From Minisyncoccota bacterium (lineage in GTDB: Bacteria > Patescibacteriota > Minisyncoccia > Phycocordibacterales > UBA9973): a stretch of DNA of 64,000 bases. Location of the stretch: contig JALOQM010000001.1 of the NCBI GenBank assembly GCA_025453495.1, positions 90,732 to 154,731 on the forward strand. The letters are read 5' to 3'. Below are positions 13,431 through 43,733 of this stretch, piece after piece. Made by a program: the position numbers and the translations under genes. Positions within the stretch are counted from its first letter, which is position 1. Each line of letters opens with the position of its first letter. The notes beneath the pieces were generated by a model, which had not been told where the DNA came from, made no database searches, and saw nothing but the letters and a program-made list of their open reading frames with translations.

Positions 13431-13510
13431 ACTTTTATGATTATTACACAAAATTGTCGATAAATCTATTTGTATAGTTTTTTATACATGCTAGAATTCC
13501 AATGTTAATT

Positions 13511-14647: not shown

Positions 14648-14720
14648 CGGGGTGTGGTGTAACGGCTAACATTCCTGTTTTGGGAACAGGCGACTCAGGG
14701 TTCGAATCCCTGCACCCCGA
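14648..14720 (+). tRNA. tRNA-Gln (anticodon TTG), tentative isotype
   Basis: cggggtg...caccccg acceptor, anticodon stem cctgt/acagg with loop tttggga, T-loop GGTTCGAATCC. Confidence 0.6.
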
Positions 14721-14735
14721 CCCGGTGAGTGTATT

Positions 14736-14806
14736 GCGGGTATGGTTTAGTGGTAGAATGCGTCCTTGCCAAGGACGAGACGGGAGTTCGATTCTCCCTA
14801 CCCGCA
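14736..14806 (+). tRNA. tRNA-Gly (anticodon GCC)
   Basis: Same acceptor as the 13511 Gly tRNA; anticodon stem cgtcc/ggacg with loop ttgccaa. Confidence 0.85.
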
Positions 14807-14812
14807 CAAAAA

Positions 14813-25742: not shown

Positions 25743-26531
25743 ATGAAGCACATACGACCAAAAAAATCTCTTGGACAGAATTTCCTAAAGTCACACACTG
25801 CGCTCACGCAGATTATCGCTGCTGGAAAATTAAATAAAAAAGATGTCGTGCTTGAAATTGGTCCCGGCAAAGGCGCGCTCACAGAAAAATTACTCGAGCA
25901 CGCGGGTACAGTTATCGCAATAGAAAAAGATACTAATTTGTTTGTCTATCTTTCCGAGAAATTCTCTGACGAGATACAAGAAGGTACGTTCATCTTACTC
26001 AACGATGACATACTTGATTTTTCATTTTCGAACTACAAAATACGAGAGACAAAATACAAACTCATTGCCAACATACCTTACAACATTACCGGTGCAATTC
26101 TTCGAAAATTTCTCTCATTAGAGACGCAACCAGAAAAAATGGTGCTTCTTGTCCAAAAAGAAGTCGCTGAGCGTATCGTCGCTCGTGACAGGAAAGAAAG
26201 CATTCTTTCTATTTCTGTCAAAGCATATGGTACACCGAAATATATTGCCAAAGTACCAGCGCGGTATTTTTCACCGGCACCCAAAGTAGACTCAGCAATC
26301 ATCTCTATTGAAAATATTTCAAAAGCACACTTCGCAAGCATTAAAGAGGAAAGTCACTTTTTTGAACTTCTCCGCGCTGGATTCGCTCACAAACGCAAGC
26401 TTCTTACGAGCAATCTCTCACATCTTGGTATTAATACAAAAACAGTACTCATCGAGTGTAGTATTTCGACACAAGCACGAGCTGAGAATCTGACACTTAA
26501 GCATTGGATTTGCCTCTCAAAGAAGCTATAA
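25743..26531 (+). CDS. rsmA: 16S rRNA (adenine1518/1519-N6)-dimethyltransferase
   Basis: SLGQNFL and EIGPGKGALT SAM-binding motifs. Confidence 0.9.
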   Translation: MKHIRPKKSLGQNFLKSHTALTQIIAAGKLNKKDVVLEIGPGKGALTEKLLEHAGTVIAIEKDTNLFVYLSEKFSDEIQEGTFILLNDDILDFSFSNYKIRETKYKLIANIPYNITGAILRKFLSLETQPEKMVLLVQKEVAERIVARDRKESILSISVKAYGTPKYIAKVPARYFSPAPKVDSAIISIENISKAHFASIKEESHFFELLRAGFAHKRKLLTSNLSHLGINTKTVLIECSISTQARAENLTLKHWICLSKKL

Positions 26532-26538
26532 TATTTGT

Positions 26539-26901
26539 ATGAAGTATTGTATTTTCTTTTTTTCGATTACACTCTTTTCTTTCTTCTTCGCTGCACATAT
26601 CTCGTTTGCCGCACTCGGGACAATGCGCTCATTCGGCGGAAGAGTGATAAGTACGACGACACCAGGTATTACTTGCGGAGCACAATACGGCATGATGAGT
26701 ATTCAGCCTGTCGGAGTATTTCCAGCAACAGGCTATACCATCACTGCAACCACTCAGTCTGTTAATCCTGGAGGTTGGATTTTGGGACTCTACAACGCGA
26801 CACCCACAACTGGTATTTGTTATACCAACACTGCTCCACCAATCCCTGTGCCTTCATTTAACATACTTAAATTTAGCACCTCAAAACCTTCTCTTTTTTA
26901 A
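26539..26901 (+). CDS. Small secreted protein (120 aa), first gene of the T4SS-like operon
   Basis: Signal peptide MKYCIFFFSITLFSFFFAAHISFA; Gly/Thr-rich mature part with two Cys. Confidence 0.45.
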   Translation: MKYCIFFFSITLFSFFFAAHISFAALGTMRSFGGRVISTTTPGITCGAQYGMMSIQPVGVFPATGYTITATTQSVNPGGWILGLYNATPTTGICYTNTAPPIPVPSFNILKFSTSKPSLF

Positions 26902-26912
26902 TTTTTTAAATT

Positions 26913-27854
26913 ATGAAACAAAGCGTAATTGAGAGATATCGAAAATACTTACCAAGCAAGCGATTTATTAGTATCACCATCTCAGTATTTGGAGTGTTGG
27001 CACTTATTCTTCTTGGGAGAGAATTTTTTAGTGGAAGAAAAAAAATAAGCGGCGATACCGAAAATACTTCTGCTTCTAATGGCACACTGATCTCAATCAG
27101 CGAACTTGCCGAGAACGACCGCGACAAAGATGGCGTCGCAGATTGGGAGGAAGCGCTCTGGGGCACCGATCCTAACAATACTGATAGCGATGGTAATGGA
27201 ATAAGTGACAAAGTTGAGATTGATGGAAAAAAAAATACTCTTACTCTTTCTTCTGCAGAACAATCAACCGAGGCACTTGATGAAACAGAAGCTTTTTCTC
27301 GTGAATTGTTTATTTCAATTAGTGCACTAAAAGAATCAGGTAATCTCAATGAACAATCAATACGCGACCTTGCGGAAACTATCAGCCAAAACGCAGGTGA
27401 AAAAGAATTCATTACGCCAGTCTATACAAAGGACTCAATACAAACAACAAATGAGGCAAAGGTAGCTGTCACAAACTATCATTCTGCCCTGCTTACCGTT
27501 TTGAAGCGCTATGACGAGAGCGGTATTGGCACTGAGCTCTCAAGTATAGAGGCTGCGCTATCTACAGAAGACCAATCTACTATTACAGATATTGAAAATA
27601 TCGCCAAAAAATACCAATCGCTTGCAAAAGACCTTATAGGCATAACAGTACCTTCTGCGATAGTAGACACCCATCTAGAGCTTGCAAACAGTGCATCTGG
27701 TATTAGTGTCTCACTTACAAACACTGCAAAACTGTTTGACAACGCCATGCTCGGTTTGATTGGTATCTCACAATACGAGAAACAAAGCTCTGTATTTGAC
27801 ACTACATTCTCAAAACTACAAGAGTATTTTAAATCGCATGGTATACTCAAATAA
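26913..27854 (+). CDS. N-terminally membrane-anchored protein with Asp-rich calcium-binding-like repeats and a helical C-terminal region
   Basis: TM helix ISITISVFGVLALILLG; DKDGVADWEEALWGTDPNNTDSDGNGISD (thrombospondin-type-3/dockerin-like DxDxDG). Confidence 0.5.
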   Translation: MKQSVIERYRKYLPSKRFISITISVFGVLALILLGREFFSGRKKISGDTENTSASNGTLISISELAENDRDKDGVADWEEALWGTDPNNTDSDGNGISDKVEIDGKKNTLTLSSAEQSTEALDETEAFSRELFISISALKESGNLNEQSIRDLAETISQNAGEKEFITPVYTKDSIQTTNEAKVAVTNYHSALLTVLKRYDESGIGTELSSIEAALSTEDQSTITDIENIAKKYQSLAKDLIGITVPSAIVDTHLELANSASGISVSLTNTAKLFDNAMLGLIGISQYEKQSSVFDTTFSKLQEYFKSHGILK

Positions 27855-30530
27855 ATGAAATCTGCCACTCGACCAACACGGATACTTGCCGGCATGTTGC
27901 TCGGAACGATAGCTTTGCAGTCGGCTTTTCTTGCACCACCCACAAAAAGTGCTGAAGCGCTCGACTTTACTGCCGCATCACAAGGAGTTCTTTCTGCTAG
28001 TGTCAGTTGTGGTGTAAACAATCTATTGCAAAGAAACCTTTCGAGTAAACTAGGTGGCCTTATTGAAGGTGAGGCGCTAAGTGAAGTGAGTGGTGCAGCT
28101 AGTGTACAAGTAGGCGACAGAGAAGTAAGAAGGCAACAAGAAGCTTTAACATTTAAAGAAACATGTCTAAAAAAAATTGCTCGCGCTGCTTCACAGGTTG
28201 TCTTGAGAGAGATAACGAGACAGACGGTCAACTGGATTAATACTGGCTTCAATGGTCAGCCACTTTTTGTAAGAAATCCACAATCATTCTTTAAGAGTCT
28301 TGCTGATAGAGAAGTACAGCGTTTAACGTCGACATTTAGAAATAGAAATAACTATCCGTTTGGACAATCGTTTATCAGAGGCTACGTGCGTGCAACACAA
28401 AGAACATTTGAACAAAATAGCGTTTATAGTCTTCGAAATTCTCTTGGCGGCTATACACCACAGCAATTTTATAGTGATTTCAATCTCGGTGGTTGGGATG
28501 GGTGGCTTGCAATGACACAACAGCCACAGAATAATCCTATTGGCTTCAGTATAGAAGCATCACGAGAACTCAGTCGTCGTCTTGCAGGTACACAACAATC
28601 AGTGGCACAAGACATACGAGATGAGCTACAGCAAGGAATGGGATTTCTCTCACCAAAAGTCTGTGTCGACCCAGTCGGCTATATTCCACCATCTGGGGCA
28701 GTGATCAGTATTACTGAAGTCGAAAATCTCGCATTAAATGATCCTATTAGTCTCATAAATCAAATGGGTATAACACCAGAGCAGGCAGCAGCAGCAATCG
28801 GTGTTAGTGTAGCTGATCTCCAAGATCTCAATGAAGAACAAATTGCAAGTCTTATAGGTGCCGCACAAACAGCTGGCTATGACCAATATGTTGATCAGTG
28901 TCGCCGCTATGAAACTACAACTCCAGGAGGTGTAGTTTCAAGTCAACTGACCAAAGTTCTTAATATACCAACAGACAATCTCTTACTTGCACCAGAAGAT
29001 CTCGACAGCAGTCTACAAGCAGTCTTTGATGCACTACTCAACCAGCTTTTCAAAAAAGGTCTTGCTTCACTTTCTGATCTTTCAAATGGTGACACTGGTG
29101 GAACTGGAGCAAGTAATATCGAAGTATATAGCGGTGGCGGGTATGGTTCAAATGCAAGTGCGACGCAAAATTTCTCGGCAACTACAAATGTGAATGATCA
29201 ATGGTTCAATCAAAACCGGCAGTTTGACATTACTAATATTGCTTCAATCCAAGAAATTATTGATACTCAAAATGAGTATATACAAGCAATCATTGATGAT
29301 CCAGCAATTGAATCCCCACTACCAAACCCAACAATAAATTCAGCGAACTACCCTCTTCCTGCAGTGCTCTATACAAGCGCAAAAGGTCAAAATTACTGGC
29401 TGAATAGAATAATCCCTGAAATCTATCAACTTGACTACTGTATACCTGGACCACACCCAGGCTGGGAAAATGAAGCACAAGCAAACTTCTTTGCTATAAA
29501 ATCTAAAATTACTGATACAAAAAATCTTAACGAAACAGCGCTTGGCAGGATATACGATACATTTACCTTTGGTTTAGGAACATCAGTTATTAATTTTTGG
29601 ACAAATGTAGCTACACCGGGTGACGTAAATGCTGATGATCTTAAACATATAAGATACTATGGCGCGCTTATACAGAATCTCACAGGCATACAGGCAGAAG
29701 CTGACAAATACATTCTCTCATACGAAAAAGTGATAAAAATTCTTGATACGCTCTTTGAGCGGTTCGTTGTACAAATGAATAGACAGTTTGATCCAGTCAA
29801 TCTCCCCTCATCCGCAGGTGAAGCAGCACTCCTTTATGCCAAAATTCCTGGATATACATCAATTCTTCAGAAAAATACCCAAGACATTGTATCGCTTAGG
29901 GGTGTTGTACGTAGACTTGAAGAAATCAAACAAGAAATAACACTCATCAACACAGAACAAGCGACACTTGATTCGCAGACGCTCTCTGGTGCTATAAGTC
30001 AATCACAAGCTGAAATTATACAAAATCAACTTGACAACAGGCTTGATTTTGCAAAGCGCTCATTTGGTAATCAAGCACAAAATTTTGTCACAGATGCTAA
30101 TACCTTAGCAATAAAAGATCAAACACGGCAGTTAATTAGTGACATTGTGTATATACACAACACCTTACTCAAAGGTCCAAGCGGGTGTGAAGCACAAATA
30201 CAGTTTGTACCAGTCGAATCTCGAGTACGTGCATGGCCGTACCAGAATCCTCATTATTATGATTATCCAAAAGGTGGAAGTGGTACTACACTAGTTGATA
30301 TTGGTAGTCTTAAACTAGACCCAATCACTAACAACCTTATCGGTGCTCCACTACGAAGCTATACGACCTATTATCCATTTATGGAATACTCTTATTTCGG
30401 TAATTCAAACTGGAGTGGCTATCGACCAACCTGGAGTCAGATTTATATTACAGATCTCATGAATTTTGACACCGGTGAAGTAGGTAACACTGTCGGTATA
30501 TTTGAAGCACGACTTATGTTTGGAGAATAG
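27855..30530 (+). CDS. Large secreted protein (891 aa) of unknown function, translationally coupled to the upstream gene (TAA-ATG)
   Basis: Signal peptide MKSATRPTRILAGMLLGTIALQSAFLA; no recognisable catalytic motifs. Confidence 0.55.
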   Translation: MKSATRPTRILAGMLLGTIALQSAFLAPPTKSAEALDFTAASQGVLSASVSCGVNNLLQRNLSSKLGGLIEGEALSEVSGAASVQVGDREVRRQQEALTFKETCLKKIARAASQVVLREITRQTVNWINTGFNGQPLFVRNPQSFFKSLADREVQRLTSTFRNRNNYPFGQSFIRGYVRATQRTFEQNSVYSLRNSLGGYTPQQFYSDFNLGGWDGWLAMTQQPQNNPIGFSIEASRELSRRLAGTQQSVAQDIRDELQQGMGFLSPKVCVDPVGYIPPSGAVISITEVENLALNDPISLINQMGITPEQAAAAIGVSVADLQDLNEEQIASLIGAAQTAGYDQYVDQCRRYETTTPGGVVSSQLTKVLNIPTDNLLLAPEDLDSSLQAVFDALLNQLFKKGLASLSDLSNGDTGGTGASNIEVYSGGGYGSNASATQNFSATTNVNDQWFNQNRQFDITNIASIQEIIDTQNEYIQAIIDDPAIESPLPNPTINSANYPLPAVLYTSAKGQNYWLNRIIPEIYQLDYCIPGPHPGWENEAQANFFAIKSKITDTKNLNETALGRIYDTFTFGLGTSVINFWTNVATPGDVNADDLKHIRYYGALIQNLTGIQAEADKYILSYEKVIKILDTLFERFVVQMNRQFDPVNLPSSAGEAALLYAKIPGYTSILQKNTQDIVSLRGVVRRLEEIKQEITLINTEQATLDSQTLSGAISQSQAEIIQNQLDNRLDFAKRSFGNQAQNFVTDANTLAIKDQTRQLISDIVYIHNTLLKGPSGCEAQIQFVPVESRVRAWPYQNPHYYDYPKGGSGTTLVDIGSLKLDPITNNLIGAPLRSYTTYYPFMEYSYFGNSNWSGYRPTWSQIYITDLMNFDTGEVGNTVGIFEARLMFGE

Positions 30531-30596
30531 TAGTAGTCATATACGTACTATGGGCATACGCGAAATTGCCATACTCTGATACAATAAAGTGTATTA

Positions 30597-33500
30597 ATGA
30601 ATCGTTTAAAACGAAAAATAAAATCTGGCTTTAAACACTTTGTGCTCACGCTAGTGCTTCTTGGCGTGACTTTTGCATCACTATTCTCTAGTCCGCTACA
30701 AGTACACGCAGCAGACAGTATGCAAGAGGTATTTCCAGCTACCTCTTCCAGTGATTCAGGAGTAGGCGATATTCTACCAATTGGTACTGTACCCTATAGC
30801 GGCAGGGATGGTGATGAATATATCATTAATGAAAATAATCTGAGTTTGACTCTTGAAGGTACACCAACTTCTCAGACAGTCACATTCAAAATGAATCTCC
30901 GCCTTGGTGGTGATTCTATACAGGGTATAAATCCAGGTAGAAATGGCAATAACACTCTTTACGACGAGGAAGAAGACCTTGGTAGTTGGCAATCAATTTA
31001 CGACACCAACAGTGATGGTAGTTGGCCACCTACTAGCGATAGTGGCAGAGGAATATGGCTTGATATTGGCACAAGTGTAGCTCCTGGACAAGCAAGTGTA
31101 GGATTTGGCTCACCTCCAATTGCACCTGTTATAAACGATCTTGTGCAAGAGTATGACCTCGCGACTCTCATTAACTTCAGGTACACATCGCAAGAAATTA
31201 ATATCACTGTAGGCACAGCAGCTGGACTTACCCCAAATACACAATACTACGCTCGCATTCGTGTTGAAGAATCAGATTCAACAGACAATGCCTACAGTAA
31301 GATTGTCGGATTCAAAACAGGTGCTGCTGGTGATACCGGAGAACAAAGCGAGGAAATCACAGCAAGCCTGACGCAATCTGAAATAAACAATGAAGGACAA
31401 CTTATTGATCTTCTTGACTGCGGTATAAGCACTATATTTACTGATTGTTTGGTTATAGGTTTCTATTACCTTTTTTATGTCCCATCATCATGGATTCTCC
31501 GTGCTGCTGGTTGGTTGCTTGACGCATTCGTTACATTTTCAATCAGTACCAAAGTATATAGTGATCCAAGTTTTATAACAGAAGGATGGAAGATCGTCCG
31601 TGATATAGCAAACATATTTTTCATTTTTGTCCTTGTATATATTGCATTTAAGCTAATACTTGGCGTTAGTGGCTCTGATGTGAAACGTATGCTGACCACT
31701 ATTATCATAGTCGGTGTCCTTATAAACTTCAGTCTATTTTTTACCAAAGTCGTTATCGACTCATCAAATATACTGGCACGCATTTTTTATCAACAGATCC
31801 AAATCACTGGTACTGAAGGTAGGGCAATCACAGATGCCTCAAAACTAGGTGTGGAAGAAAAAAGTCTCTCACAAGCTATTGTCAGTGGTGTAAGTGTAAA
31901 CAAAATGCTCTCTGATGAGACTATTACAAAACTACGTACTATGAATTGGCATAGTACTAGTTCAACATTTTTGATTATTATACTTGGCTTAATTGTCAAT
32001 CTCGTTACTGCTTGGACATTATTTATGAGTGCACTGTTTTTTATAGGGAGGATTGTCGCCTTGTGGGTAGCTATGATATTTTCAGCATTCGCCTTTATGT
32101 CAAACATTGCACCTGATTGGTTTAAACAAATTCCTATGATTAATTGGAGTAGTTGGTTCTCTGACCTTTTAAAGGTTTCCTTTTTAGCGCCGATCTTTCT
32201 GTTCTTTATTTATTTGATTATTGCATTTGTGAATAGCAAATTTCTCGATGGGTTACTGCTTAAAGCAAACGATTTTGATTTTACACAACTCCTCGTCTCT
32301 ATTATGCTCCAGTTTGGAATTTTAATTGTCCTTATACAAAAAGCAAAAGATATTGCTGAAAAACTTGCAGGAGACACAGCTGGTGCCGCTGTAAGTGCTA
32401 TAAAAAAAGGAGCTTCCGCTGTTGGTTCAGTAGTTGCTGGAGCAGGACTTGCTGTAGCAACTGCTGGAGCAGGATTTGCACTTCGTGGCACACTTGGCAG
32501 ATATGCCGCAGATCAGATGAATTCTGAAGAATACAAAAAGAAAATGGCCGAACGCATAGAAAAAGGTGGTGTTCGTGGTTGGCTTGCACAACGAGAACTC
32601 AAATCATATGAAAGTTTCAGTAATGCAAGTTTTGATGCTCGTGGATCAAAAAGATTTCAGAGTGCTCTCACTAGGTTTGGTGGTGCAACTGGTATAAATA
32701 TAAACACTGGAACTGGACACGAGGGAGGACATCTAAGTGATAAAGAAAAGAAAGAAAAAGAGCATCTTGCTATGGTAGAGCTCCTGCGATCAAAGAAAAG
32801 CGATGAGGAGTGGATGGAGTCACTCAGCGAGGATGATCCAGAAAAGAAAAAGTACATGGATGCAAAAAAGAAATACGAGACTGAGAAAGCTGTGTTTGAT
32901 GAGTATGAAAACAAATACAGAGAAGCATACGAGGCTGCAAAAAACTTGCCTGGCTTTAATCTTGACAAATTTAGAATTGACTATGAAAAAGCAAATGGAA
33001 AAGCACCAGATGCGCCAAAGGAAGTCAAAGCATCAGACTATGTTGATGTTTCAAAAATAAACAAAGAGCGCGAACTTAAATATGCAAGATACCTTAGAGA
33101 GAATACATTGCGCGCAAAGATAGAGCGTGCAACAGGTGATGGAGATCTGCTTGGCACGGAGCGTAGCGCACAATTGTCAGCAGCCAAAAAGATCGAAAGA
33201 GAAGCAGCAATGACTGAGAAATCATCAGTAAGTATGTCGAAACTTGCTCGCGCCGCAGAACAAGCAGAATACGATATTGGTCGCCTCAATAGAGAAATTG
33301 AAGCACATCAAACTAAATACTCTGGTACGCCTGAAGAAGTAAAACAAAAAATTACTCTTGAGATAAATACGGCAAAGAATGAACTGAAAGATATTGATCT
33401 AAATGCTGAAATGATGAAACAAAAATATGAAAGTGTAAAAAAGAAAGGTGGAAATACTGCGAGACAAGCTTATATTGCATGGCAAGCTGCTGAAGACAAG

Positions 33501-33632
33501 AGAAAAGAGAAACAAGAAGAAATCGCGGCTCTTGGTAGGGTAACAGAAGATCAGAAAAAACGTATAAGCGAACTTGAAAAGAAAGAAGGAGATCTTGAAA
33601 AGCTCCGAGAAAAGATAGACAAACTTAACTAG
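30597..33632 (+). CDS. VirB6/TrbL-like polytopic inner-membrane protein (1011 aa) with an N-terminal secreted domain and a K/E-rich coiled-coil C-terminal tail of about 450 aa
   Basis: Signal peptide; about 270-aa exodomain; at least 7 TM helices (e.g. IFFIFVLVYIAFKLILGV, TIIIVGVLINFSLFF, FLAPIFLFFIYLIIAF); Gly-zipper AGAGLAVATAGAGFA; C-terminal heptad-like KKKYE/EKKEGDLEK repeats. Confidence 0.55.
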   Translation: MNRLKRKIKSGFKHFVLTLVLLGVTFASLFSSPLQVHAADSMQEVFPATSSSDSGVGDILPIGTVPYSGRDGDEYIINENNLSLTLEGTPTSQTVTFKMNLRLGGDSIQGINPGRNGNNTLYDEEEDLGSWQSIYDTNSDGSWPPTSDSGRGIWLDIGTSVAPGQASVGFGSPPIAPVINDLVQEYDLATLINFRYTSQEINITVGTAAGLTPNTQYYARIRVEESDSTDNAYSKIVGFKTGAAGDTGEQSEEITASLTQSEINNEGQLIDLLDCGISTIFTDCLVIGFYYLFYVPSSWILRAAGWLLDAFVTFSISTKVYSDPSFITEGWKIVRDIANIFFIFVLVYIAFKLILGVSGSDVKRMLTTIIIVGVLINFSLFFTKVVIDSSNILARIFYQQIQITGTEGRAITDASKLGVEEKSLSQAIVSGVSVNKMLSDETITKLRTMNWHSTSSTFLIIILGLIVNLVTAWTLFMSALFFIGRIVALWVAMIFSAFAFMSNIAPDWFKQIPMINWSSWFSDLLKVSFLAPIFLFFIYLIIAFVNSKFLDGLLLKANDFDFTQLLVSIMLQFGILIVLIQKAKDIAEKLAGDTAGAAVSAIKKGASAVGSVVAGAGLAVATAGAGFALRGTLGRYAADQMNSEEYKKKMAERIEKGGVRGWLAQRELKSYESFSNASFDARGSKRFQSALTRFGGATGININTGTGHEGGHLSDKEKKEKEHLAMVELLRSKKSDEEWMESLSEDDPEKKKYMDAKKKYETEKAVFDEYENKYREAYEAAKNLPGFNLDKFRIDYEKANGKAPDAPKEVKASDYVDVSKINKERELKYARYLRENTLRAKIERATGDGDLLGTERSAQLSAAKKIEREAAMTEKSSVSMSKLARAAEQAEYDIGRLNREIEAHQTKYSGTPEEVKQKITLEINTAKNELKDIDLNAEMMKQKYESVKKKGGNTARQAYIAWQAAEDKRKEKQEEIAALGRVTEDQKKRISELEKKEGDLEKLREKIDKLN

Positions 33633-33649
33633 CCAGATAAGAAAAAATT

Positions 33650-34339
33650 ATGATAGATTTTACTGAACAACAAATGGAAGAAAAATTCAATGCGGTCCCG
33701 CGCTCGGTGCGCGCGTTGATCTTTGATCCTATAGTTGGAGAAAAAACACAAAGTATCGGCAAGAAGTATGGATTACTGCTTGATGCATCAAGTGACTTGC
33801 TTGCAATTGTGCAATTTGCTCTTTTTGGATTCATTACTCAAGAAGATATCAAAAAAGAAATTATCGAAGCACTCAAAGTAAGTAATACTGTAGCATCTGC
33901 CATTACTGTAGATATAAAAAACGAAATAGTAGCGCCTATTTTTGAAAAAATGCGCAAGCAACAAGAAGAAACTACTACAGAAAAAATAACTGACGAAGAA
34001 ATTGCACTCCTTCTTACTGAACCTGAAGATGACAGTAGTGGTTTTGCGCAAGCTGGTATTGAAATACAATCAGAGAAACCTTTCATTGGCGACGAGGAAA
34101 AGGAAGCCTTTGAGGAGCATAAGGTATTGCTCAAGCAAATAGAACGTACTACCTCGCCAATACAAACGTCAAACGAGATACAGCGAGGTATTACAGGTGA
34201 AAAATTTTCTGGTAATTTCAAAATTCCTCATGAAGAGCGAGATTATTCGATAAATAAGCAGTCTGACGCAGATACAGTTTCACTCAAAGTAATAAGGCAT
34301 CGTGACCGTGTCGATCCATACCGAGAACCTCTTGAATAA
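33650..34339 (+). CDS. Acidic cytoplasmic hypothetical protein (229 aa)
   Basis: Intact ORF in operon; hairpin aaaatgcccgtagtttgcgggcatttt immediately downstream. Confidence 0.45.
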   Translation: MIDFTEQQMEEKFNAVPRSVRALIFDPIVGEKTQSIGKKYGLLLDASSDLLAIVQFALFGFITQEDIKKEIIEALKVSNTVASAITVDIKNEIVAPIFEKMRKQQEETTTEKITDEEIALLLTEPEDDSSGFAQAGIEIQSEKPFIGDEEKEAFEEHKVLLKQIERTTSPIQTSNEIQRGITGEKFSGNFKIPHEERDYSINKQSDADTVSLKVIRHRDRVDPYREPLE

Positions 34340-34404
34340 CAAAATGCCCGTAGTTTGCGGGCATTTTGCTTTGCCGGCAGTGGAAGATACCATATAATGA
34401 ATAT

Positions 34405-34842
34405 ATGCGATTTGAAGTGCCGCAATTCATTGACGTCGAAGACAAGATTTTCGGCCCATTCACTTTTAAGCAATTTTTATATCTTGCCGGAGGAGCGGGT
34501 ATCATCTATGTCCTTTGGAAACTTCTCCCAGCGATCATCGCCATACCACTCATACTTCCTGTCGCTGGACTCGCACTTGCTCTGACATTTTACAAAGTAA
34601 ATGGTCGACCATTCGCACAAACTATTGAGTCTTGGATGAAATACATCACTCAGGACAAACTCTATCTTTGGAAAAAAAGAGAGCGCAGAAAGACGCCAGA
34701 AAAAACACCAATGCCTGAGACAGAACAAGTACCAATTCAAGCACCACGTCTTTCTGGGAGTAAACTCAAAGACATCGCATGGAGTCTTGATGTTCTTGAT
34801 ATGCAAGAGAACGCAAAGCTCGATAAACTCGACACAAGATAA
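34405..34842 (+). CDS. PrgI-family-like small membrane protein of Gram-positive-type T4SS (functional VirB3 analogue)
   Basis: MRFEVPQFIDVEDKIFGPFTFKQFLYLAGGAGIIYV then a second TM helix; classic PrgI-family N-terminus and two-TM topology directly upstream of VirB4; start moved to ATG 34405 because the upstream in-frame Met lies inside the preceding hairpin. Confidence 0.6.
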   Translation: MRFEVPQFIDVEDKIFGPFTFKQFLYLAGGAGIIYVLWKLLPAIIAIPLILPVAGLALALTFYKVNGRPFAQTIESWMKYITQDKLYLWKKRERRKTPEKTPMPETEQVPIQAPRLSGSKLKDIAWSLDVLDMQENAKLDKLDTR

Positions 34843-34849
34843 CTAACAT

Positions 34850-35488
34850 ATGGCTATCAACGCAAAAGCATCACAAGAATTTGTACCTGTTAAAGAAGTG
34901 CGCGACGGTATCGTCGTCTTAAAAGATGGCAGCCTTCGTGCTATTTTGCTTGCTTCATCAATCAATTTGTCACTCAAGTCATATGAAGAACAACAGGCAG
35001 TTCTTTTACAATTTCAGAACTTTCTCAATTCAATAGATTTCTCAATGCAGATCGTCGTCCAATCTCGCCGACGTGACATGCGTCCATATCTTACACTACT
35101 TGAAAACAGAATGCGTGAACAAACTGAACCACTCTTGAAAGTGCAGACGCGCGAGTATATTGAATTCATCAAAAGCTTCACGGAGTCAGTGAGTATTATG
35201 ACAAAAAACTTTTTTATCATCGTTCCGTATTCATCAGTATCATTGCCTTCAGCTGAGGGTGTTATAAAAAAACTATTTGGTGGCACAAATAAAAAAACAG
35301 TAGCTCAAGAAGAATTAGCAAGCTTTGAAGAAAAACGTACACAACTTGAGCAAAGAGTTGGCACTATCACACAGGGACTTTCCCGTATGGGTGTCAGAAC
35401 AGCACAGCTTGGTACTGAGGAGGTTATAGAACTTTTCTATAAGATATTTAATCCGGGAGAAATAACTGCAAGTATTAAATCACAATAA
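34850..35488 (+). CDS. virB4: VirB4/ConE/PrgJ N-terminal domain encoded as a separate ORF (first part of a split VirB4)
   Basis: EFVPVKEVRDGIVVLKDGSLRAILLASSINLSLKSYEEQQAVLLQF matches the conserved Gram-positive VirB4 N-terminus; TAA stop 1 nt before the ATG of the ATPase ORF. Confidence 0.6.
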   Translation: MAINAKASQEFVPVKEVRDGIVVLKDGSLRAILLASSINLSLKSYEEQQAVLLQFQNFLNSIDFSMQIVVQSRRRDMRPYLTLLENRMREQTEPLLKVQTREYIEFIKSFTESVSIMTKNFFIIVPYSSVSLPSAEGVIKKLFGGTNKKTVAQEELASFEEKRTQLEQRVGTITQGLSRMGVRTAQLGTEEVIELFYKIFNPGEITASIKSQ

Positions 35489-35489
35489 T

Positions 35490-37538
35490 ATGGGCTTTTT
35501 TGATACATTGTTTGGGAATAAGTCAAAAGTAAAAGAAGCGGAAAAAACGCCAGTGCTTTCTGTCTTACCTGAACAAATCTATGAATCAGCAACCCTCGAA
35601 TTCCAAGACATCATCGCACCATCTGCTCTTAAAATAGAGTCGAAATCTCTAAATCTTGGCGAGAAAATAACACGCACGTTTTTTGTTATTTCCTATCCAA
35701 GATTCCTGACCGATAATTGGTTCTCACCGATAATAAACCTCGACAAGATTTTTGATGTATCAATCTTTATTCATCCTATAGATTCACAGAAATTGCTTCG
35801 CGATTTCCAGAAAAAAGTCGCAGAAGTTCAAAGTCAGATCAACACCAGAGAAGCAAAAGGACTTGTCAGAGATCCAATGCTTGATACTGCTTACCGTGAT
35901 CTTGAGGCGCTTAGAGACAATCTCCAACAGGCGCAAGAACGGGTCTTTGAGGTTGGACTGTATATCACAGTATATGCTGACAATGAAAATGAGCTTTTCA
36001 AAGTTGAAAATGAGATAAAAACTATCCTTGAATCACGCCTTATTTATCTAAAACCAGCACTCTTTCAGCAAGAAGAAGGATTTAAGAGTGTTTTACCGAT
36101 CGGTAATGATCTTCTCTCAGTACACCAAAAACTCAATACTGAGCCGCTTTCGTCTATTTTTCCATTTGTGTCCTTCGACCTCACAAGTGACAATGGGATC
36201 CTTTATGGCGTAAATCGACACAATGCGTCACTTGTTATCTTTGATCGTTTCTCCCTTGAAAACTATAATTCAATTATCTTTGCAAAGTCCGGAGCTGGAA
36301 AGTCGTATGCGACGAAGCTTGAGATTATCCGTACACTTATGTTTGATACTGACGTGATCGTTATCGACCCAGAACGTGAGTATGAGTATCTTGCTGAAGC
36401 AGTCGGTGGACGCTATTTCAATATAGCGCTTTCTTCTGATCACCACATCAACCCATTTGATCTACCAATTCCACGTGAAGATGAAACGACAGCTGACGTG
36501 CTTCGCTCAAACACAATCAATCTTGTCGGCTTGTTTCGTATCATGCTCGGCGGACTAACACCAGAAGAGGACGCGCTCATAGACAGAGCGATTACAGAAA
36601 CATATGCAATAAAAGATATTACTGCTGATTCAGATCTCAGTGACATAGAACCACCACTGTTGTCTGATTTTGAGCTTGTTCTTGCTGGTATGGAAGGAAG
36701 CGAAAAAGTACTCCAACGTCTGACAAAATATACTAAAGGATCTTGGTCAACCTTTATAAACCGCCCATCAAACGTCGACATCAACAAGAAATTTGTCGTC
36801 TTCTCTGTGCGCGACATGGAAGATGAGTTGAAGCCTGTCGCTATGTATATTGTCACGCACTTCATCTGGAACGAAGTGCGTAAATCAATAAAAAAGCGCC
36901 TACTTGTCGTCGACGAAGCATGGTGGATGATGAAATCAGAAGACACCGCTTCATTTCTCTACTCAATCGCAAAAAGAGGGCGTAAATACTATCTTGGCCT
37001 CTGTACTATCACCCAAGACGTTGGAGACTTCATGAGAAGTCCCTATGGTGTGCCTATTGTAACAAACTCTTCATTGCAGCTTCTCCTTAAACAATCACCG
37101 TCATCGATTGATCTTCTACAGAAGACATTTAATCTCACCGATGAAGAAAAATATCTTCTTCTTGAATCTGCCGTTGGTGAGGGCATCTTCTTTGCAGGAC
37201 TCAAGCATGTTGCCATAAAGATCATTGCCTCATACACCGAAGATCAAATTATTACCTCAGATCCATCACAAGTACTTGCTATAAAACGCGCTAAGGAAGA
37301 ATTTGAAGCATCTGAAACGCAAAGAGAACAAGCTATTGTTTCAGAGACAGAAATAGTAAGAGCGCAACCATTTGAAACAACAATAGCACCTAAAACAATA
37401 CCTGAGACAGAAGAAACAATAGACGCAGCTGAAATGACACCTGTCCGACAAAAAACAAAGGAAGAGTCACAACTTGATGAGCTTGCCATCCTTGATGAAG
37501 ACCTCAAAGAAATCGAAGAGGATATTGTCGGAAAATAA
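35490..37538 (+). CDS. virB4: VirB4/TrsE/CagE-family T4SS ATPase (central and ATPase domains)
   Basis: Walker A IIFAKSGAGKSYATK; HINPFD motif; Walker B LLVVDEAWWMM; RKYYLGLCTITQDVGDF motif. Confidence 0.85.
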   Translation: MGFFDTLFGNKSKVKEAEKTPVLSVLPEQIYESATLEFQDIIAPSALKIESKSLNLGEKITRTFFVISYPRFLTDNWFSPIINLDKIFDVSIFIHPIDSQKLLRDFQKKVAEVQSQINTREAKGLVRDPMLDTAYRDLEALRDNLQQAQERVFEVGLYITVYADNENELFKVENEIKTILESRLIYLKPALFQQEEGFKSVLPIGNDLLSVHQKLNTEPLSSIFPFVSFDLTSDNGILYGVNRHNASLVIFDRFSLENYNSIIFAKSGAGKSYATKLEIIRTLMFDTDVIVIDPEREYEYLAEAVGGRYFNIALSSDHHINPFDLPIPREDETTADVLRSNTINLVGLFRIMLGGLTPEEDALIDRAITETYAIKDITADSDLSDIEPPLLSDFELVLAGMEGSEKVLQRLTKYTKGSWSTFINRPSNVDINKKFVVFSVRDMEDELKPVAMYIVTHFIWNEVRKSIKKRLLVVDEAWWMMKSEDTASFLYSIAKRGRKYYLGLCTITQDVGDFMRSPYGVPIVTNSSLQLLLKQSPSSIDLLQKTFNLTDEEKYLLLESAVGEGIFFAGLKHVAIKIIASYTEDQIITSDPSQVLAIKRAKEEFEASETQREQAIVSETEIVRAQPFETTIAPKTIPETEETIDAAEMTPVRQKTKEESQLDELAILDEDLKEIEEDIVGK

Positions 37539-37570
37539 GAAAAGCAATGTTTTAATGGTATACTCTCTGT

Positions 37571-37996
37571 ATGGATGAGATATCAGCTAATACTACAAGC
37601 GATCAAATACAACCAAGTGCAACAGCACAAGACGATACTATAACACAAATGACAACCGTGAGCGCTATTGAAGAGGAGGTGGCGAAAGAACTCGGCACTG
37701 GTGATACAGTTGCTCCTGCAGATAGCTTACAAGACAAAGCAAAAAAACTTGCTACTGCTCGCCTTGCCCTTGAAGAGAAAATTATAGCTCTTGAGCGAGA
37801 TGTCAAAGCAAAGCTTGCGGCGCTAAAAGAGCTCAAAGCGGCACTAGAAGAAGAGATAGGGAAGATCAAAGAACTCAAAGAAACTGAAGGAAAAATCGAT
37901 ATACAGTTACAGAAAATCGATGATCTTGAGAAAAAGCGAGAAGAAATCGAGAATGAAATAAAAAACATCGAAGCCACTACAGCAGGTGTCTCATAA
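37571..37996 (+). CDS. Acidic coiled-coil protein (141 aa)
   Basis: ALEEKIIALERDVKAKLAALKELKAALEEEIGKIKELKE heptads. Confidence 0.45.
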   Translation: MDEISANTTSDQIQPSATAQDDTITQMTTVSAIEEEVAKELGTGDTVAPADSLQDKAKKLATARLALEEKIIALERDVKAKLAALKELKAALEEEIGKIKELKETEGKIDIQLQKIDDLEKKREEIENEIKNIEATTAGVS

Positions 37997-38022
37997 CTGC
38001 ATATAAGTGATATAATCAAAAC

Positions 38023-39033
38023 ATGCATCGTATCGGCAAAATCATACTCCTTGGCACACTCTTGATGGGCGTACTTTTGTTTTCCCCAGTTACTATAGAT
38101 GCACAATTTACTGGAAATACTGACATCACAGTAAATGTTAGTCCTACTATTCCAGGTCCAAATGAAGAAGTAGTGGTGACTCTCACTAGTCTTTCAGTAA
38201 ATCTTGATACAATTACTATTAGGTGGGAAATAAATGGAAAAACAGAACTTAGTGGTGTTGGAGAGAAAACGTTGACATTCAAAACTGGTGGAGTCGGATC
38301 AACAACGACAATTGAAGCTTCAATTGATGTTCCAGGTGTGCCGACCATAACCAAGCGTATAGTTATCCAACCACTAGCAATCGACCTGCTTTGGGAAGCA
38401 ACTGACTCGTATACACCTCCGTTTTACAAAGGAAAAGCACTGCTTCCGTCTGAAGGAGTAGTAAAGGTAGTTGCCATACCTGAGATTAAAACAACTAGCG
38501 GAAAGATGCTAAAACCATCTGATTTTACTTATACATGGAATCGCAATCAAAGGGAACAAGCCATTAACTCAGGAAATGGAAGAAATTATTTTTCTTTCCA
38601 GCAGAATTACCTGACAAATGAAGAAGTTATAACAGTAACAGCAAAATCAGTTTCTGGTAACTATCAAGCAACAAAGAAAGTAACAATTACACCTCGTGCC
38701 TCAAAAGTGTTATTCTATGAATTTGATCCAGCGCTTGGAGTCAGATATGAACGCATGCTTCAAGATATTACTGGTGTACAGGTAAATAAAGAAGGACTAA
38801 TTATTACCGCTGAGCCGTATTATTTTTCAGCAAATACTGCTGATACAGCACAGCTTTCATTTGAATGGAATGTGAACAATGAGGAAATTACGTCGCCAAC
38901 AAAAAAACATATGTTACCAGTACAAGTAACCACAAACGGCGTAGCAGAAATTCGAGTTAAGACAGAAGCTAGGATGAAATTATTCCAGGAGGCAACACGG
39001 TCGCTGTTCGTTAATCTTGAAGCAAATGAGTAA
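38023..39033 (+). CDS. Secreted beta-rich (Ig-like repeat) protein, 336 aa
   Basis: Signal/anchor MHRIGKIILLGTLLMGVLLFSPVTIDA; repeated VTxTxK beta-strand patterns. Confidence 0.5.
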   Translation: MHRIGKIILLGTLLMGVLLFSPVTIDAQFTGNTDITVNVSPTIPGPNEEVVVTLTSLSVNLDTITIRWEINGKTELSGVGEKTLTFKTGGVGSTTTIEASIDVPGVPTITKRIVIQPLAIDLLWEATDSYTPPFYKGKALLPSEGVVKVVAIPEIKTTSGKMLKPSDFTYTWNRNQREQAINSGNGRNYFSFQQNYLTNEEVITVTAKSVSGNYQATKKVTITPRASKVLFYEFDPALGVRYERMLQDITGVQVNKEGLIITAEPYYFSANTADTAQLSFEWNVNNEEITSPTKKHMLPVQVTTNGVAEIRVKTEARMKLFQEATRSLFVNLEANE

Positions 39034-40135
39034 TATATTTTTAGTAATTCGTATTCTAGCAATTAGCAGCTCTTTATTAAGTGTGCTTCTTTTCCAAACC
39101 GTAGATTTGGTTTTTGCTCAGGTGCCAACAAGTGACACTACTTCAATTGTAAAAGAAATTTGTGACAACAATATTGACGATAATGGCGATAATCTTGCAG
39201 ACGGAAAAGATCCTCAGTGTTATTTTCTTCTTGCTCCTCTCCCTGGTCTTTCAACAATCAATACAACACAAGGGCTTCCTGCATATCTAAAGGTATTATA
39301 TCGACTAGCAATTGGTATTGCTGGTGTTATCGCAGTAGTTATCATCGTATGGGCAGGTATAGAATATATGATGAGTGATGTTGTGTTTAAAAAAGATGAT
39401 GCAAAGCAACGAATTTGGAACGCACTCGGTGGTCTTGTCTTGCTTATCGGATCATTTGTATTACTCAATACAATCAACCCTGATCTTCTTAATCTAAATC
39501 CTCGGGTGCCCATTAAGGAAATCAATATTGAAGAGGAAGTAGGTGGCGATACTGGTGATGTATTTATCGCAAATTATACTTCTCCGTCAGGAATCTTCTA
39601 TCCACGAAGTGGTGGAGCATCACAAATAAGTCGCATTGTCAGCAGTCTTGATGGAAAAGTTACCTACCGCTTTGGCGGTAAAGGCGGCCCAGCACCGTAT
39701 CCAAGTGATACAAAGATGTGCGAAAATGGTCCGTGCAAAAATTACTGCCCACCGGGAACTGTTTGTCTTGATTGCTCTGGATTTATAAATTATATATATG
39801 TTGGTGCAGGTATTGCACCTATTAATGGCGGGACAGGAACGATATTTTCGTCATCTGAAAAAATTACAAAGATAGAAAACAGAATTATTAACGGAGAAAC
39901 TGCTACGTACGTCAACGATATAGCTCTTAAAACAGGGGATCTTTTAGGATGGGTGGCAAACGAAAATGGAAATAAGGTCGGACATGTTGTTATGTATATT
40001 GGTAATGGTCAAGCAGTAGAATCTACCTCAGGTGGGAATGGGAGAAGCTCTGGTAATGGGTTAAAAAAATTAGAGGTAACACAAAAGTATCTTCGAAAAG
40101 AAGTCCAGCTTTTGACAAGAGTTAAAAGACTATAA
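39017..40135 (+). CDS. Fusion of a pilin-like (VirB2/TrbC-like) two-helix hydrophobic hairpin with a C-terminal NlpC/P60 (C40) cell-wall peptidase
   Basis: Long signal peptide; hydrophobic hairpin LAIGIAGVIAVVIIVWAGIEY ... ALGGLVLLIGSFVLL; NlpC/P60 catalytic motifs CLDCSGFINYIY (Cys) and GDLLGW...GHVVMYIGNGQAVES (His); Asp-rich CDNNIDDNGDNLADGKD loop. Confidence 0.7.
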   Translation: MKQMSNIFLVIRILAISSSLLSVLLFQTVDLVFAQVPTSDTTSIVKEICDNNIDDNGDNLADGKDPQCYFLLAPLPGLSTINTTQGLPAYLKVLYRLAIGIAGVIAVVIIVWAGIEYMMSDVVFKKDDAKQRIWNALGGLVLLIGSFVLLNTINPDLLNLNPRVPIKEINIEEEVGGDTGDVFIANYTSPSGIFYPRSGGASQISRIVSSLDGKVTYRFGGKGGPAPYPSDTKMCENGPCKNYCPPGTVCLDCSGFINYIYVGAGIAPINGGTGTIFSSSEKITKIENRIINGETATYVNDIALKTGDLLGWVANENGNKVGHVVMYIGNGQAVESTSGGNGRSSGNGLKKLEVTQKYLRKEVQLLTRVKRL

Positions 40136-40144
40136 TTAATCATT

Positions 40145-41716
40145 ATGAACAAGCGACAGCGTCTTATACTTATCACAGCAATAGTGCTCCTTGCTCTATG
40201 TGGAGTCTTTGTTTTCTTTTCTATTAGCCAAAAAAGAGTTTCTCTTGAAACTCCAACACTGCGTGAGTTTTTTACTTTTGGAAGATCAAACCAAATTCAA
40301 ACAGAAAGGATGAGTGAACCATCTTCACAAAGAGGAGAAGAAATCGATTCAGAAGCAAGAGGAGGTTCTTTTTTTCTAAAACAAATTACGTCTCGTCCTG
40401 TTGCAGGGGCTGCGGCTGTCAGTGTATCGCGCAAAATAATTAATACAGAAATAAATACAACAGAAAATGAAACTACTGCGCAATGGACAAGAGACCTTAA
40501 GGAAGGTGACACTGGTGAAGATGTTAGAGAATTACAGATATTTTTGAACACCAATATAGAACCTAGTGGTGGTAGTGATAAAACAACCATTGTCGCTATA
40601 AAAGGTGCTGGATCTAAAGGAAATGAGACGACGTATTTTGGTACAGCAACTACAGCTGCGCTTCGTATTTTCCAAGAAAAATTCGAAATAGAAAGCACTG
40701 GGATTGCTGACGAAAGAACAAGAAAAAAAATATTTACACTACAACAAAGTATTCCAAAAGAAGAAAAAGTAACTGCAGTGCGATACGTTGATAAGAGAGA
40801 TGGGACTATTTTTCAAACATTTATAGATACTATTGAAGAAAAAAAAATATCTGGGACCAAGATTCCGAAAATACATGAAGCGTATTTTGGCAAAGATGCC
40901 CTAACTACACTTTTGCGTCTTGTGGAAGAAGATGGTGTAACTATTGCAACCTACGCTGGTACACTTCCAAAGATTATTGAGGGAGGGGATTCAATTACAA
41001 ACATGAGAGGTTCTTTTATAGAAAGAAATATAGAATCACTTTCTTTTTCTCCTGATAAAAGTAAATTCTTTTACCTTGTGAGTTCTGGTCAATTTACAAA
41101 TGGGATCATTGCAAGCGCAACAGGTGGATCAAAGATACAAGTATTTTCATCTCCATTTAGTGAATGGTTACCTCAATGGGTAGATGATCGTACTATCGCA
41201 CTAACAACAAAACCAGCAGCATCTTTTGGTGGTTATCTCTATACGCTTGATACAAAAACCAAAGAATTCAAAAAAGTGATGAGTGAGGTACCGGGACTTA
41301 CCACCCTCTATAGTCCGAATGGTAAAAAAGTACTATACTCTCGGGCAACAAAAAATAGAAACAGCTTTCTTACTGCGATATACGATACAGAAACAAAAAA
41401 ATCTACTGATCTTGATGTGCACACACTTCCTGAAAAATGCGTATGGTCTAATGATAGTATTACACTCTACTGCTCTGTACCTAAATATATAAACGGAGGA
41501 GAGTACCCGGACGTGTGGTATCAAGGAATACAATCGTTTAGTGATATGATCTGGCAAATAAATACAAAAGACGGAATTCTAAAAAGAGTGTCTGATCCTT
41601 TCCAAGAAGCAGGAATCGAAATTGATGGAATACATCTTTTCCTTGATACTGAAGAATCAAATCTTTTTCTCACCAATAAAAATGATTCTTCTCTATGGAC
41701 ACTCACACTCAACTAA
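40145..41716 (+). CDS. Membrane-anchored protein with a peptidoglycan-binding domain (PG_binding_1-like) and a C-terminal TolB-like beta-propeller
   Basis: TM helix LILITAIVLLALCGVFVFF; GEDVRELQIFLN...TTAALRIFQEKFEI PG-binding helix pair; YSPNGKKVLYSR / TAIYDTETKK propeller blades. Confidence 0.6.
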   Translation: MNKRQRLILITAIVLLALCGVFVFFSISQKRVSLETPTLREFFTFGRSNQIQTERMSEPSSQRGEEIDSEARGGSFFLKQITSRPVAGAAAVSVSRKIINTEINTTENETTAQWTRDLKEGDTGEDVRELQIFLNTNIEPSGGSDKTTIVAIKGAGSKGNETTYFGTATTAALRIFQEKFEIESTGIADERTRKKIFTLQQSIPKEEKVTAVRYVDKRDGTIFQTFIDTIEEKKISGTKIPKIHEAYFGKDALTTLLRLVEEDGVTIATYAGTLPKIIEGGDSITNMRGSFIERNIESLSFSPDKSKFFYLVSSGQFTNGIIASATGGSKIQVFSSPFSEWLPQWVDDRTIALTTKPAASFGGYLYTLDTKTKEFKKVMSEVPGLTTLYSPNGKKVLYSRATKNRNSFLTAIYDTETKKSTDLDVHTLPEKCVWSNDSITLYCSVPKYINGGEYPDVWYQGIQSFSDMIWQINTKDGILKRVSDPFQEAGIEIDGIHLFLDTEESNLFLTNKNDSSLWTLTLN

Positions 41717-43598: not shown

Positions 43599-43733
43599 TT
43601 ATACAGAAAGCTTCTTGCGGCCTTTTTGTCTTCGCGCTTTAAGTACTTTTTTGCCGTTTTTTGTTTTTGTTCTGACGAGAAAACCGTGTGTAGTCTTTCT
43701 TTTTCGCTTCGAGGGATTGTATGTTTGCGACAT
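43599..43733 (-). CDS. rpmH: 50S ribosomal protein L34 (44 aa); not in the ORF track
   Basis: Manual translation of the minus strand: [44 protein letters not shown], matching the L34 consensus. Confidence 0.85.

Follow-up and report, generated by a model that had tools for sequence, protein, structure and literature searches.

What kind of machine is encoded when a VirB4 ATPase and the membrane partners of a conjugation apparatus lie together among core housekeeping genes of a bacterial chromosome? The question is raised by a cluster of twelve genes, here called g1 to g12, at 26539-41716 of a 64-kb stretch of DNA (the window; contig JALOQM010000001.1 of assembly GCA_025453495.1) from a Minisyncoccota bacterium. 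The cluster is very probably a vertically inherited chromosomal type IV secretion system (T4SS) of Patescibacteria (candidate phyla radiation, CPR), in its Paceibacteria/Parcubacteria form, which descends from monoderm MPF-FATA conjugation machinery and no longer has its DNA-processing parts. Four of the genes encode a cytoplasmic-membrane translocon, made up of PrgI/VirB3-like g6, TrsD-like g7, the VirB4 ATPase g8 and an extended VirB6-like protein, g4. A single VirB2-like hairpin protein, g11, carries a cell-wall endopeptidase domain, and conserved envelope proteins (g10 and g12, plus g2 and g3, which are secreted or anchored) accompany the translocon. An earlier note on this DNA had proposed a chromosomal, non-conjugative T4SS-like machine, a proposal supported by the components, by synteny in about 50 genomes, by base composition and by the lack of parts of an integrated conjugative element (ICE).

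The membrane translocon

The ATPase is encoded by g8 (35490..37538; 682 amino acids). It matched Pfam PF19044 at E=8e-25 together with AAA_10 and DUF87, and its best match in the PDB was 4ag5, the Thermoanaerobacter VirB4 (E=4.7e-42); TrwK was matched at 1.9e-5. The Walker A (GAGKS), Walker B (DEAW) and INPFD motifs are all intact in the sequence, and the VirB4 assignment made earlier from the last two is confirmed by these searches. An acidic C-terminal extension of about 70 residues (37290-37538) accounts for a length of 682 residues versus about 610 in most relatives; both this extension and the inserted gene g9 are common to only a few close relatives.

Upstream of VirB4, g6 (34405..34842; the longest open reading frame (ORF) runs from a TTG at 34366) encodes a PrgI/VirB3-like protein whose hydrophobic hairpin can be read as two transmembrane (TM) helices. 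It matched PF12666 (PrgI) at E=2.2e-11, above the gathering score, with a weak match to TcpE. The identity given to this two-TM protein in the earlier note therefore stands; its placement immediately upstream of VirB4 does not, since g7 (34850..35488) lies between the two. The g7 product is a TrsD-like, free-standing homologue of the VirB4 N-terminal domain. It matched NCBIfam TrsD (NF041427) at 1.1e-8 and also the N-terminal parts of the VirB4 models NF045975 (1.3e-11), NF045971 (1.7e-7) and TIGR00929 (2e-4). BLASTP found no similarity between g7 and the N-terminus of g8, so that the TrsD/VirB4-N kinship is visible to hidden Markov models (HMMs) only.

The fourth component, g4 (30597..33632), is an extended VirB6-like polytopic membrane protein. 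From the N-terminus, a signal/TM segment is followed by an ectodomain that weakly matched FN3-like domains and by a core (residues ~270-630) containing about seven hydrophobic segments; the long C-terminal tail, of about 380 amino acids, is charged and resembles a coiled coil. Both profile and structure comparison back the VirB6 assignment, as predicted, though the window protein itself has no direct Pfam match to VirB6 families; among 59 orthologues, Pfam returned a TrbL match in just one, at 0.0017, which is insufficient alone. Sequence identity of g4 to VirB6/TrwI of R388 and to DotA of the Legionella Dot/Icm system is 11-12%, and the N-terminal ectodomain and charged tail go beyond both, giving an 'extended VirB6' architecture. 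The locus accordingly holds the set sought in a VirB4-based T4SS, namely an ATPase of the VirB4 family whose Walker A and B motifs are intact, a small VirB3/PrgI-like membrane protein near it and a VirB6-like polytopic channel protein, together with the TrsD homologue beside virB4 that marks the Patescibacteria clade. The four assignments on which the T4SS call had been staked (VirB4, PrgI, VirB6 and NlpC/P60) each have support from HMMs or structure.

Conservation and chromosomal setting

All twelve ORFs lie on the plus strand and are co-directional, as first described. The gaps between successive genes from g1 to g12 are 11, 0, 66, 17, 26, 7, 1, 32, 26, -17 and 9 nt; the described tight packing, with overlaps or gaps under 30 nt, is thus right for most of them but not for the gaps of 66 and 32 nt. 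The upstream neighbours encode NusA, an M23/LysM peptidase, UvrD/PcrA and RsmA. On the downstream side the opposite strand carries the genes for Jag (R3H), YidC, YidD, RnpA and RpmH (43599-43733), beyond which come those for DnaA and DnaN. The flanks are those claimed earlier (rsmA on one side, jag-yidC-rnpA-rpmH/dnaA on the other), to which UvrD, YidD and DnaN can be added. The window reaches its GC minimum (0.32-0.34) at 43-46 kb, and it is on this local minimum, and mainly on the marker genes, that the label 'origin-adjacent' is based. Two DnaA-box-like nonamers are present in the rpmH-dnaA spacer and two in the dnaA-dnaN spacer. A search of the whole window gave 25 matches, with 16 +/- 4 expected and 2 of 100 shuffles reaching 25, a weak enrichment that is suggestive only as a sign of an origin. 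GC skew showed no sharp switch along the window.

We compared the locus with those of its relatives in a one-genome-per-species scan, which yielded 548 confirmed relatives, and analysed the best 80 loci; synteny was assessed by tblastn of the window proteins, with counts made among loci with full flanks (51 or 55). VirB4 is 75-87% identical in the 80 species-representative genomes, which are mostly Paceibacterota, Nomurabacteria or Parcubacteria records, about two dozen being labelled uncultured Saccharibacteria. The order uvrD-rsmA-(g1)-g2-g3-g4-(g5)-PrgI-g7-VirB4-(g9)-g10-g11-g12-jag-yidC-rnpA-dnaA-dnaN is kept, and both the block and its chromosomal position are conserved in about 50 species-level Paceibacteria genomes. 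The genes g4, g6 (PrgI) and g7 were each found in 51/51 loci (g7 with a median identity of 62%), g3 in 46/51 and g2, at the same position, in 37/51; g10, g11 and g12 were each found in 54/55, with dnaA downstream in 51/55. The remaining genes, g1 (4/51), g5 (9/51) and g9 (1/55), are lineage-specific or evolve too fast to be detected. More than 8000 database proteins are VirB4 homologues at E<=1e-20, and the named top matches are nearly all from Patescibacteria; one, from a 'Candidatus Pacebacteria bacterium' metagenome-assembled genome, is 100% identical to the window VirB4. In a neighbour comparison the nearest VirB4 sequences came almost entirely from Paceibacteria/Patescibacteria (75-100% identity), whereas the nearest relatives on mobile elements (plasmids) were of the monoderm CD1110 family, at 28-36% identity. 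This pattern of neighbours is consistent with membership of a Patescibacteria clade nested in MPF-FATA.

Composition points the same way as position. The GC content of the cluster is 0.399 versus 0.410 in the neighbouring housekeeping genes, and codon frequencies correlate at r=0.93, which bears out the native look previously noted by eye. No relaxase, type IV coupling protein (T4CP) or integrase was found among the cluster proteins, the flanking genes or the window ORFs of at least 400 amino acids, and flanking att-like direct repeats were likewise lacking, only short imperfect chance repeats being seen. These absences had been reported before, and the combination of relaxase, T4CP, integrase and repeats that was to mark an ordinary ICE does not occur in the window. 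The same chromosomal site and gene order across species argue for vertical inheritance rather than an ICE, and the lack of these four features also speaks against an ICE.

Much of this was already on record, so the description of such systems as largely uncharacterised does not hold. In a survey of 3035 Patescibacteria genomes, in which VirB4 was found in 2417 (Quinonero-Coronel et al. 2025, Microb Genom; PMC12102498), Patescibacteria VirB4 forms a monophyletic clade nested in MPF-FATA. The survey also places TrsD, PrgI/VirB3, VirB6 and VirB2-like proteins near virB4 and the locus near dnaA, dnaN, ksgA, rnpA and rpmH, notably in Paceibacteria, and describes VirB8 as almost absent and relaxases as rare. 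Wang et al. 2023 (Cell; PMC10633639) showed that the T4SS genes SEML1_0006-0019 of Southlakia epibionticum, which come with neither coupling protein nor relaxase, are essential for its epibiotic growth. The essential genes include a pilin array, PrgI, TrsD and VirB6, with comEC dispensable (PMC10633639, PMC12857230); according to a 2025 FEMS review, comEC deletion abolishes competence while viability is kept (PMC12857230). A 2026 preprint described tubular structures at the parasite-host interface, suggested to be T4SS pili, along with uptake of host RNA (bioRxiv 10.64898/2026.06.21.733656). The clade, its closeness to the origin, the absence of a relaxase and the TrsD, PrgI, VirB6 and VirB2-like parts are thus all published (PMC12102498, PMC10633639, PMC12857230). 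That such a system exists, where it lies and that it is non-conjugative were already known; only some of the component-level details are new.

Set beside the Patescibacteria-clade T4SS (PMC12102498, PMC10633639), the window locus shares the VirB4 with TrsD, PrgI/VirB3, VirB6 and VirB2-like parts, the lack of relaxase and T4CP, the monoderm ancestry and the chromosomal site by dnaA, dnaN, ksgA, rnpA and rpmH. The Saccharimonadia version encodes six small, divergent VirB2-like pilins in an array and has separate peptidase and lysozyme genes, whereas the window locus has one VirB2-like module, fused to a hydrolase; the window partners g2, g3, g10 and g12 are not named in the parts of these two papers that were consulted. 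With MPF-FATA systems (pGO1 Trs, pCF10 Prg, CTn2 CD1110 and ICEBs1 Con) the locus has in common a CD1110/DUF87-type VirB4, a PrgI-like VirB3, a polytopic VirB6-like protein and a membrane-anchored wall hydrolase of the NlpC/P60 or CHAP type, as in CwlT, PrgK and TraG; TrsD links it to the pGO1 subclass. Unlike them, it has no relaxase, T4CP (PcfC/ConQ), VirB8-like NTF2 protein (PrgL/TraM/ConB) or adhesin, it possesses a VirB2-like module, which Gram-positive systems lack, its VirB4 is only 28-36% identical to theirs, and it is not on a mobile element. There is also a likeness to mycoplasma ICE genes, in that the best NCBIfam match of g7 is the N-terminal part of Mbov_0397-type VirB4 (1.3e-11) and the g11 hairpin matches the Mbov_0395 pilin-like family (9e-6), at scores far below the family cut-offs; the mycoplasma genes sit in mobile ICEs with DNA-processing genes.

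The VirB2-like wall hydrolase and the task of the machine

The pilin-like wall hydrolase foreseen in the earlier note is g11 (39017..40135; the start may be ATG 39026), a protein of 372 amino acids. Its order is a signal peptide, a short acidic Cys-rich head, a VirB2-like pilin hairpin (residues ~65-162) and a C-terminal NlpC/P60 endopeptidase domain. The latter matched PF00877 at 3.6e-8, with the catalytic Cys (DCSGF) and His (GHVVMY) in place. The hairpin matched T4SS_pilin PF18895 at 4.9e-5, just under gathering, and NF045849 (Mbov_0395 pilin-like) at 9e-6; among 61 orthologues PF18895 was matched in 51 (best 9e-10) and PF04956 (TrbC/VirB2) in 5, so that it is chiefly through these family-level PF18895 matches that a VirB2-like pilin, as expected for the Patescibacteria clade, is recognized near virB4.

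A purpose-built HMM of the pilin module, run on the window and the 80 related loci, scored the window g11 at 1.8e-35 and retrieved 78 proteins in all, usually one per locus. The module sequences formed one homology cluster. By contrast, clustering separated the C-terminal tails into 25 unrelated groups and the N-terminal heads into 31. Pfam assigned the tails of the 61 orthologues to NlpC/P60 (13), VanY (8), YkuD (5), Amidase_5 (4), M15_4 (3), SLT/SLT_2 (3) and Amidase_2 (1), and the enzyme domain was C-terminal to the module wherever domain positions were reported. Five genomes carry two module paralogues each; over 390-820 nt of module DNA the two copies are 94-100% identical, and their tails part abruptly 15-25 residues past a conserved LNTINPxL motif. 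In L003 (12871-14619 and 15982-17871) and L048 (12768-14234 and 14254-15681) an NlpC/P60 tail is paired with one that has no assigned domain; the other pairs are SLT with Amidase_2 in L058 (3557-5044 and 5080-6879), 3D with NlpC/P60 in L067 (12555-14297 and 15659-17359) and NlpC/P60 with SLT in L078 (13748-14839 and 14870-15868). Near-identical modules with unrelated tails and a sharp break after LNTINPxL point to cassette-like exchange or gene conversion. The g11 family looks like a VirB1-VirB2 fusion whose tail is swapped as a cassette between and even within genomes. The pairing of glycosidase and peptidase tails echoes the bifunctional hydrolases PrgK, TraG and CwlT (PMC12857230).

In such a machine VirB4, docked by PrgI and TrsD, would power the assembly of a VirB6-based channel and of a VirB2-type conduit through the wall, and the fused hydrolase would open the peptidoglycan of the cell itself or of its host. 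The whole would mediate contact-dependent exchange of macromolecules with the host cell that the bacterium lives on, by export of effectors or import of host material, and not conjugation. A bolder version, which we offer tentatively and with considerable doubt, is that the only VirB2-like module of the T4SS in Paceibacteria serves as a constant carrier for interchangeable wall-cleaving domains (NlpC/P60, VanY, YkuD, amidases, SLT, 3D), recombined just past LNTINPxL in the manner of polymorphic toxin systems; the conduit might then be an enzyme-armed penetration device fitted to the wall chemistry of the host, opening the host envelope for uptake of host macromolecules such as RNA. A constant VirB2-like carrier with swappable wall-cleaving domains was not found in the literature searched.

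Several points weigh against reading the cluster as a host-directed T4SS of the Patescibacteria clade. To our knowledge, a VirB2-like module within a multidomain protein of 372 amino acids is unlike any known polymerising pilin. Membership in the VirB4 clade was judged from nearest neighbours instead of a tree and is to that extent provisional. A VirB8-like bitopic protein of the NTF2 fold was not found, the model of g10 being Ig-like and the profiles of g2 and g12 giving no VirB8, TraM or PrgL match; this absence matches the scarcity of VirB8 published for the clade (PMC12102498). The basis of the proposed function is homology together with experiments on members of another class, Saccharimonadia, and a substrate, a direction of transport and a pilus are hypothetical here. 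The negative result for relaxase and T4CP covers the 64-kb window, so a distant copy may exist, and T4CP homologues are common elsewhere in Patescibacteria genomes (PMC12102498).

Three other explanations have to be weighed. The cluster could be a host-independent housekeeping machine of the envelope. It would then insert or secrete wall-remodelling enzymes and surface proteins that the cell itself needs to grow and divide, and would form no channel into a host. Very high conservation, the fixed position among core housekeeping genes, the wall-active or wall-binding nature of the conserved partners and the resemblance of paired glycosidase and peptidase tails to autolysin sets would suit this idea. 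We nevertheless regard it as unlikely: no role in wall growth is known for VirB4/VirB6 machines, the fast swapping of hydrolase tails between close relatives fits varying targets better than a conserved self wall, and tubular structures have been reported at the host interface (bioRxiv 10.64898/2026.06.21.733656). The prospects are slimmer for a DNA-uptake (competence) T4SS like Helicobacter ComB or archaeal Ced, importing environmental or host DNA for nucleotides or recombination. Like ComB, the locus has no relaxase or T4CP; organisms of this kind lack nucleotide synthesis, ComEC (5050-6549) and RecJ are encoded in the same window, and loci of the ABY1 class co-localise with comF, recG and radA (PMC12102498). 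A separate T4P-type (type IV pilus) ATPase (53711-55408) together with ComEC provides the usual competence route in the window, however, and in Southlakia competence requires T4P and ComEC and is killed, with viability spared, by comEC deletion, while the T4SS is essential (PMC10633639, PMC12857230). Hardly credible, and already largely refuted, is an ICE or its decayed remnant, with a T4SS that serves or once served cell-to-cell DNA transfer: VirB4, PrgI, TrsD and an NlpC/P60 hydrolase do form the parts list of Gram-positive conjugation systems, and the nearest non-CPR relatives do lie on conjugative plasmids, but the large ORFs of the window include no relaxase, T4CP or integrase, direct repeats do not flank the cluster, GC and codon usage are native, the same genes occupy the same site in about 50 species-level genomes with VirB4 75-87% identical, and the survey lists only 109 relaxases in 3035 genomes, just 15 of them near virB4 (PMC12102498).

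Among T4SSs, that of the Patescibacteria was the first to be shown indispensable for its own carrier bacterium, and the window offers a clean, complete Paceibacteria example of it with a fuller parts list. The list gains the TrsD-like protein, a structure-supported extended VirB6, the wall-binding anchored g12 and a large family without a known domain; a three-Ig envelope protein, g10, is present where VirB8 might be expected. For the few cultivated Paceibacteria-host pairs these provide concrete targets in g11 processing, in tail specificity (host versus self wall) and in the partners of g10 and g12.

Envelope partners, transcription units and neighbouring genes

The most constant envelope partners flank g11. 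The g10 product (38023..39033) begins with a TM/signal helix, after which come three Ig/FN3-like beta-sandwich domains in tandem; its AlphaFold 2 (AF2) model is all-beta with a pLDDT of 91.6, and its Foldseek matches, Hoc and SiiE among them, were only generic Ig arrays. Searches of Pfam, NCBIfam and PDB sequences, one of them with a profile, gave no match. As modelled, g10 is a conserved envelope component, and the detail of its three Ig-like domains was not found in the literature searched. That g10 might be the missing VirB8 was considered and ruled out by the AF2 model of three Ig-like beta-sandwiches together with the lack of a PDB-sequence match. On the other side of g11, g12 (40145..41716) encodes an N-terminal TM anchor, a PG_binding_1 domain (PF01471, 5e-10; present in only 7/60 orthologues) and a C-terminal region weakly like a TolB propeller, the best PDB match of the family profile being TolB 7mx5 at E=0.007. 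The peptidoglycan-binding half of the 'peptidoglycan-binding propeller protein' described earlier is therefore sound, and the propeller half is only weakly similar to TolB.

Between rsmA and g4 lie two further partners. The g2 product (26913..27854) is a single-pass membrane protein (TM 17-35) with an acidic, TSP3-like calcium-binding repeat. Apart from weak TSP3/CglD repeat matches, its family profile matched in the PDB only the repeat of the biofilm surface protein 7c7r (E=3e-4), and nothing matched the C-terminal region, leaving the repeat as the sole matching part. The adjoining g3 (27855..30530) encodes a secreted protein of 891 amino acids with conserved Cys and Trp motifs. Its family is large, with 3502 clusters at 50% identity at E<=1e-3 and 493 at E<=1e-30. 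Pfam searches with 41 and then 44 members and two profiles against PDB sequences gave no match to the core, nor did NCBIfam; matches were confined to peripheral Ig, FN3 or coiled-coil regions. Several Cys, Trp and Gly positions are invariant, which is suggestive of an extracellular fold stabilised by disulfides. A large family of this kind lacking a Pfam or PDB-sequence match was not found in the literature searched.

The other three genes are accessory. A small secreted protein of 120 amino acids with a hydrophobic, signal-like N-terminus and 2 Cys is encoded by the lineage-specific g1 (26539..26901), which matched neither Pfam nor NCBIfam and has a TATAAT ending 6 nt ahead of its ATG. The product of g5 (33650..34339) is a soluble, acidic, fast-evolving protein of 229 amino acids with no TM segment and no family match; most loci have an ORF-sized space at its place. 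The lineage-specific insertion g9 (37571..37996) encodes an acidic, coiled-coil-like protein of 141 amino acids with weak matches of coiled-coil type only, and elsewhere virB4 is mostly followed directly by g10. Most partners of VirB4 had been said to have no detectable family; this is only partly right, since a family or domain is now matched by 7 of the 12 genes (by g11 and g12 over only part of the protein), and g10 is an eighth with a confident fold.

We also examined how the cluster may be transcribed. In 11/50 window genes the start codon is preceded by a -10-like hexamer that ends 5-12 nt away from it, compared with 3.2% of all ATGs (p=4.5e-7), and a Shine-Dalgarno-like motif is found at only 2/50. 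The 11 genes include g1, g3, g4, g9, g10 and g12, and such boxes also precede the genes at 10251, 17837 (minus strand), 23730, 42219 (minus strand) and 62174. Within the cluster the boxes lie at 26527-26532 (g1), 27843-27848 (g3), 30580-30585 (g4), 34393-34398 (g6), 37559-37564 (g9), 38011-38016 (g10) and 40131-40136 (g12). In the 80 related genomes the feature precedes 72% of g10, 43% of g3 and 39% of PrgI orthologues. These TATAAT-like boxes close to start codons are predicted to be leaderless-type promoters; a generic sigma-70 scan of the window showed no enrichment, with 31 sites found versus 41 expected. Immediately after g5, a terminator-like hairpin read from the sequence (34341-34367, plus strand; AAAATGCCCG-TAGTTTG-CGGGCATTTT) is followed on the same strand by a promoter-like TTGCCG-16-TATAAT at 34371-34398 (promoter scan score 10/12, sigma-70-like), the -10 of which ends 6 nt before ATG 34405. 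Given the hairpin and this spacing, g6 probably starts at 34405, which is more likely than the TTG at 34366. The internal leaderless-type promoters and the hairpin after g5 suggest that the cluster probably forms several transcription units and not the single operon initially assumed. The internal promoters are a detail not found in the literature searched.

Elsewhere in the window, the genes for ComEC, RecJ (7385-9130) and the PilB/T2SSE-type ATPase, all on the minus strand, belong to competence and type IV pilus machinery distinct from the T4SS. A secreted M23 peptidase with LysM repeats is encoded at 22314-23654 (minus strand), two genes upstream of the cluster; M23 and LysM are listed in the survey among the domains on VirB1-like proteins of the phylum (PMC12102498), and a link of this peptidase to the T4SS is therefore possible. 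The Rfam scan of the window returned tRNAs only, with a cluster of four (Arg-TCG, Gly-TCC, Pro-TGG and Gly-GCC) at 13358-14807. An ORF of 305 amino acids at 14729-15646 overlaps tRNA-Gly at its start, which is therefore probably miscalled. The ORFs at 240-2507 (minus strand, 755 amino acids) and 55470-56807 (plus strand, 445 amino acids) had no Pfam match at E<=1e-4, and the latter adjoins a DUF11/FN3 surface-type protein of 643 amino acids at 56932-58863.

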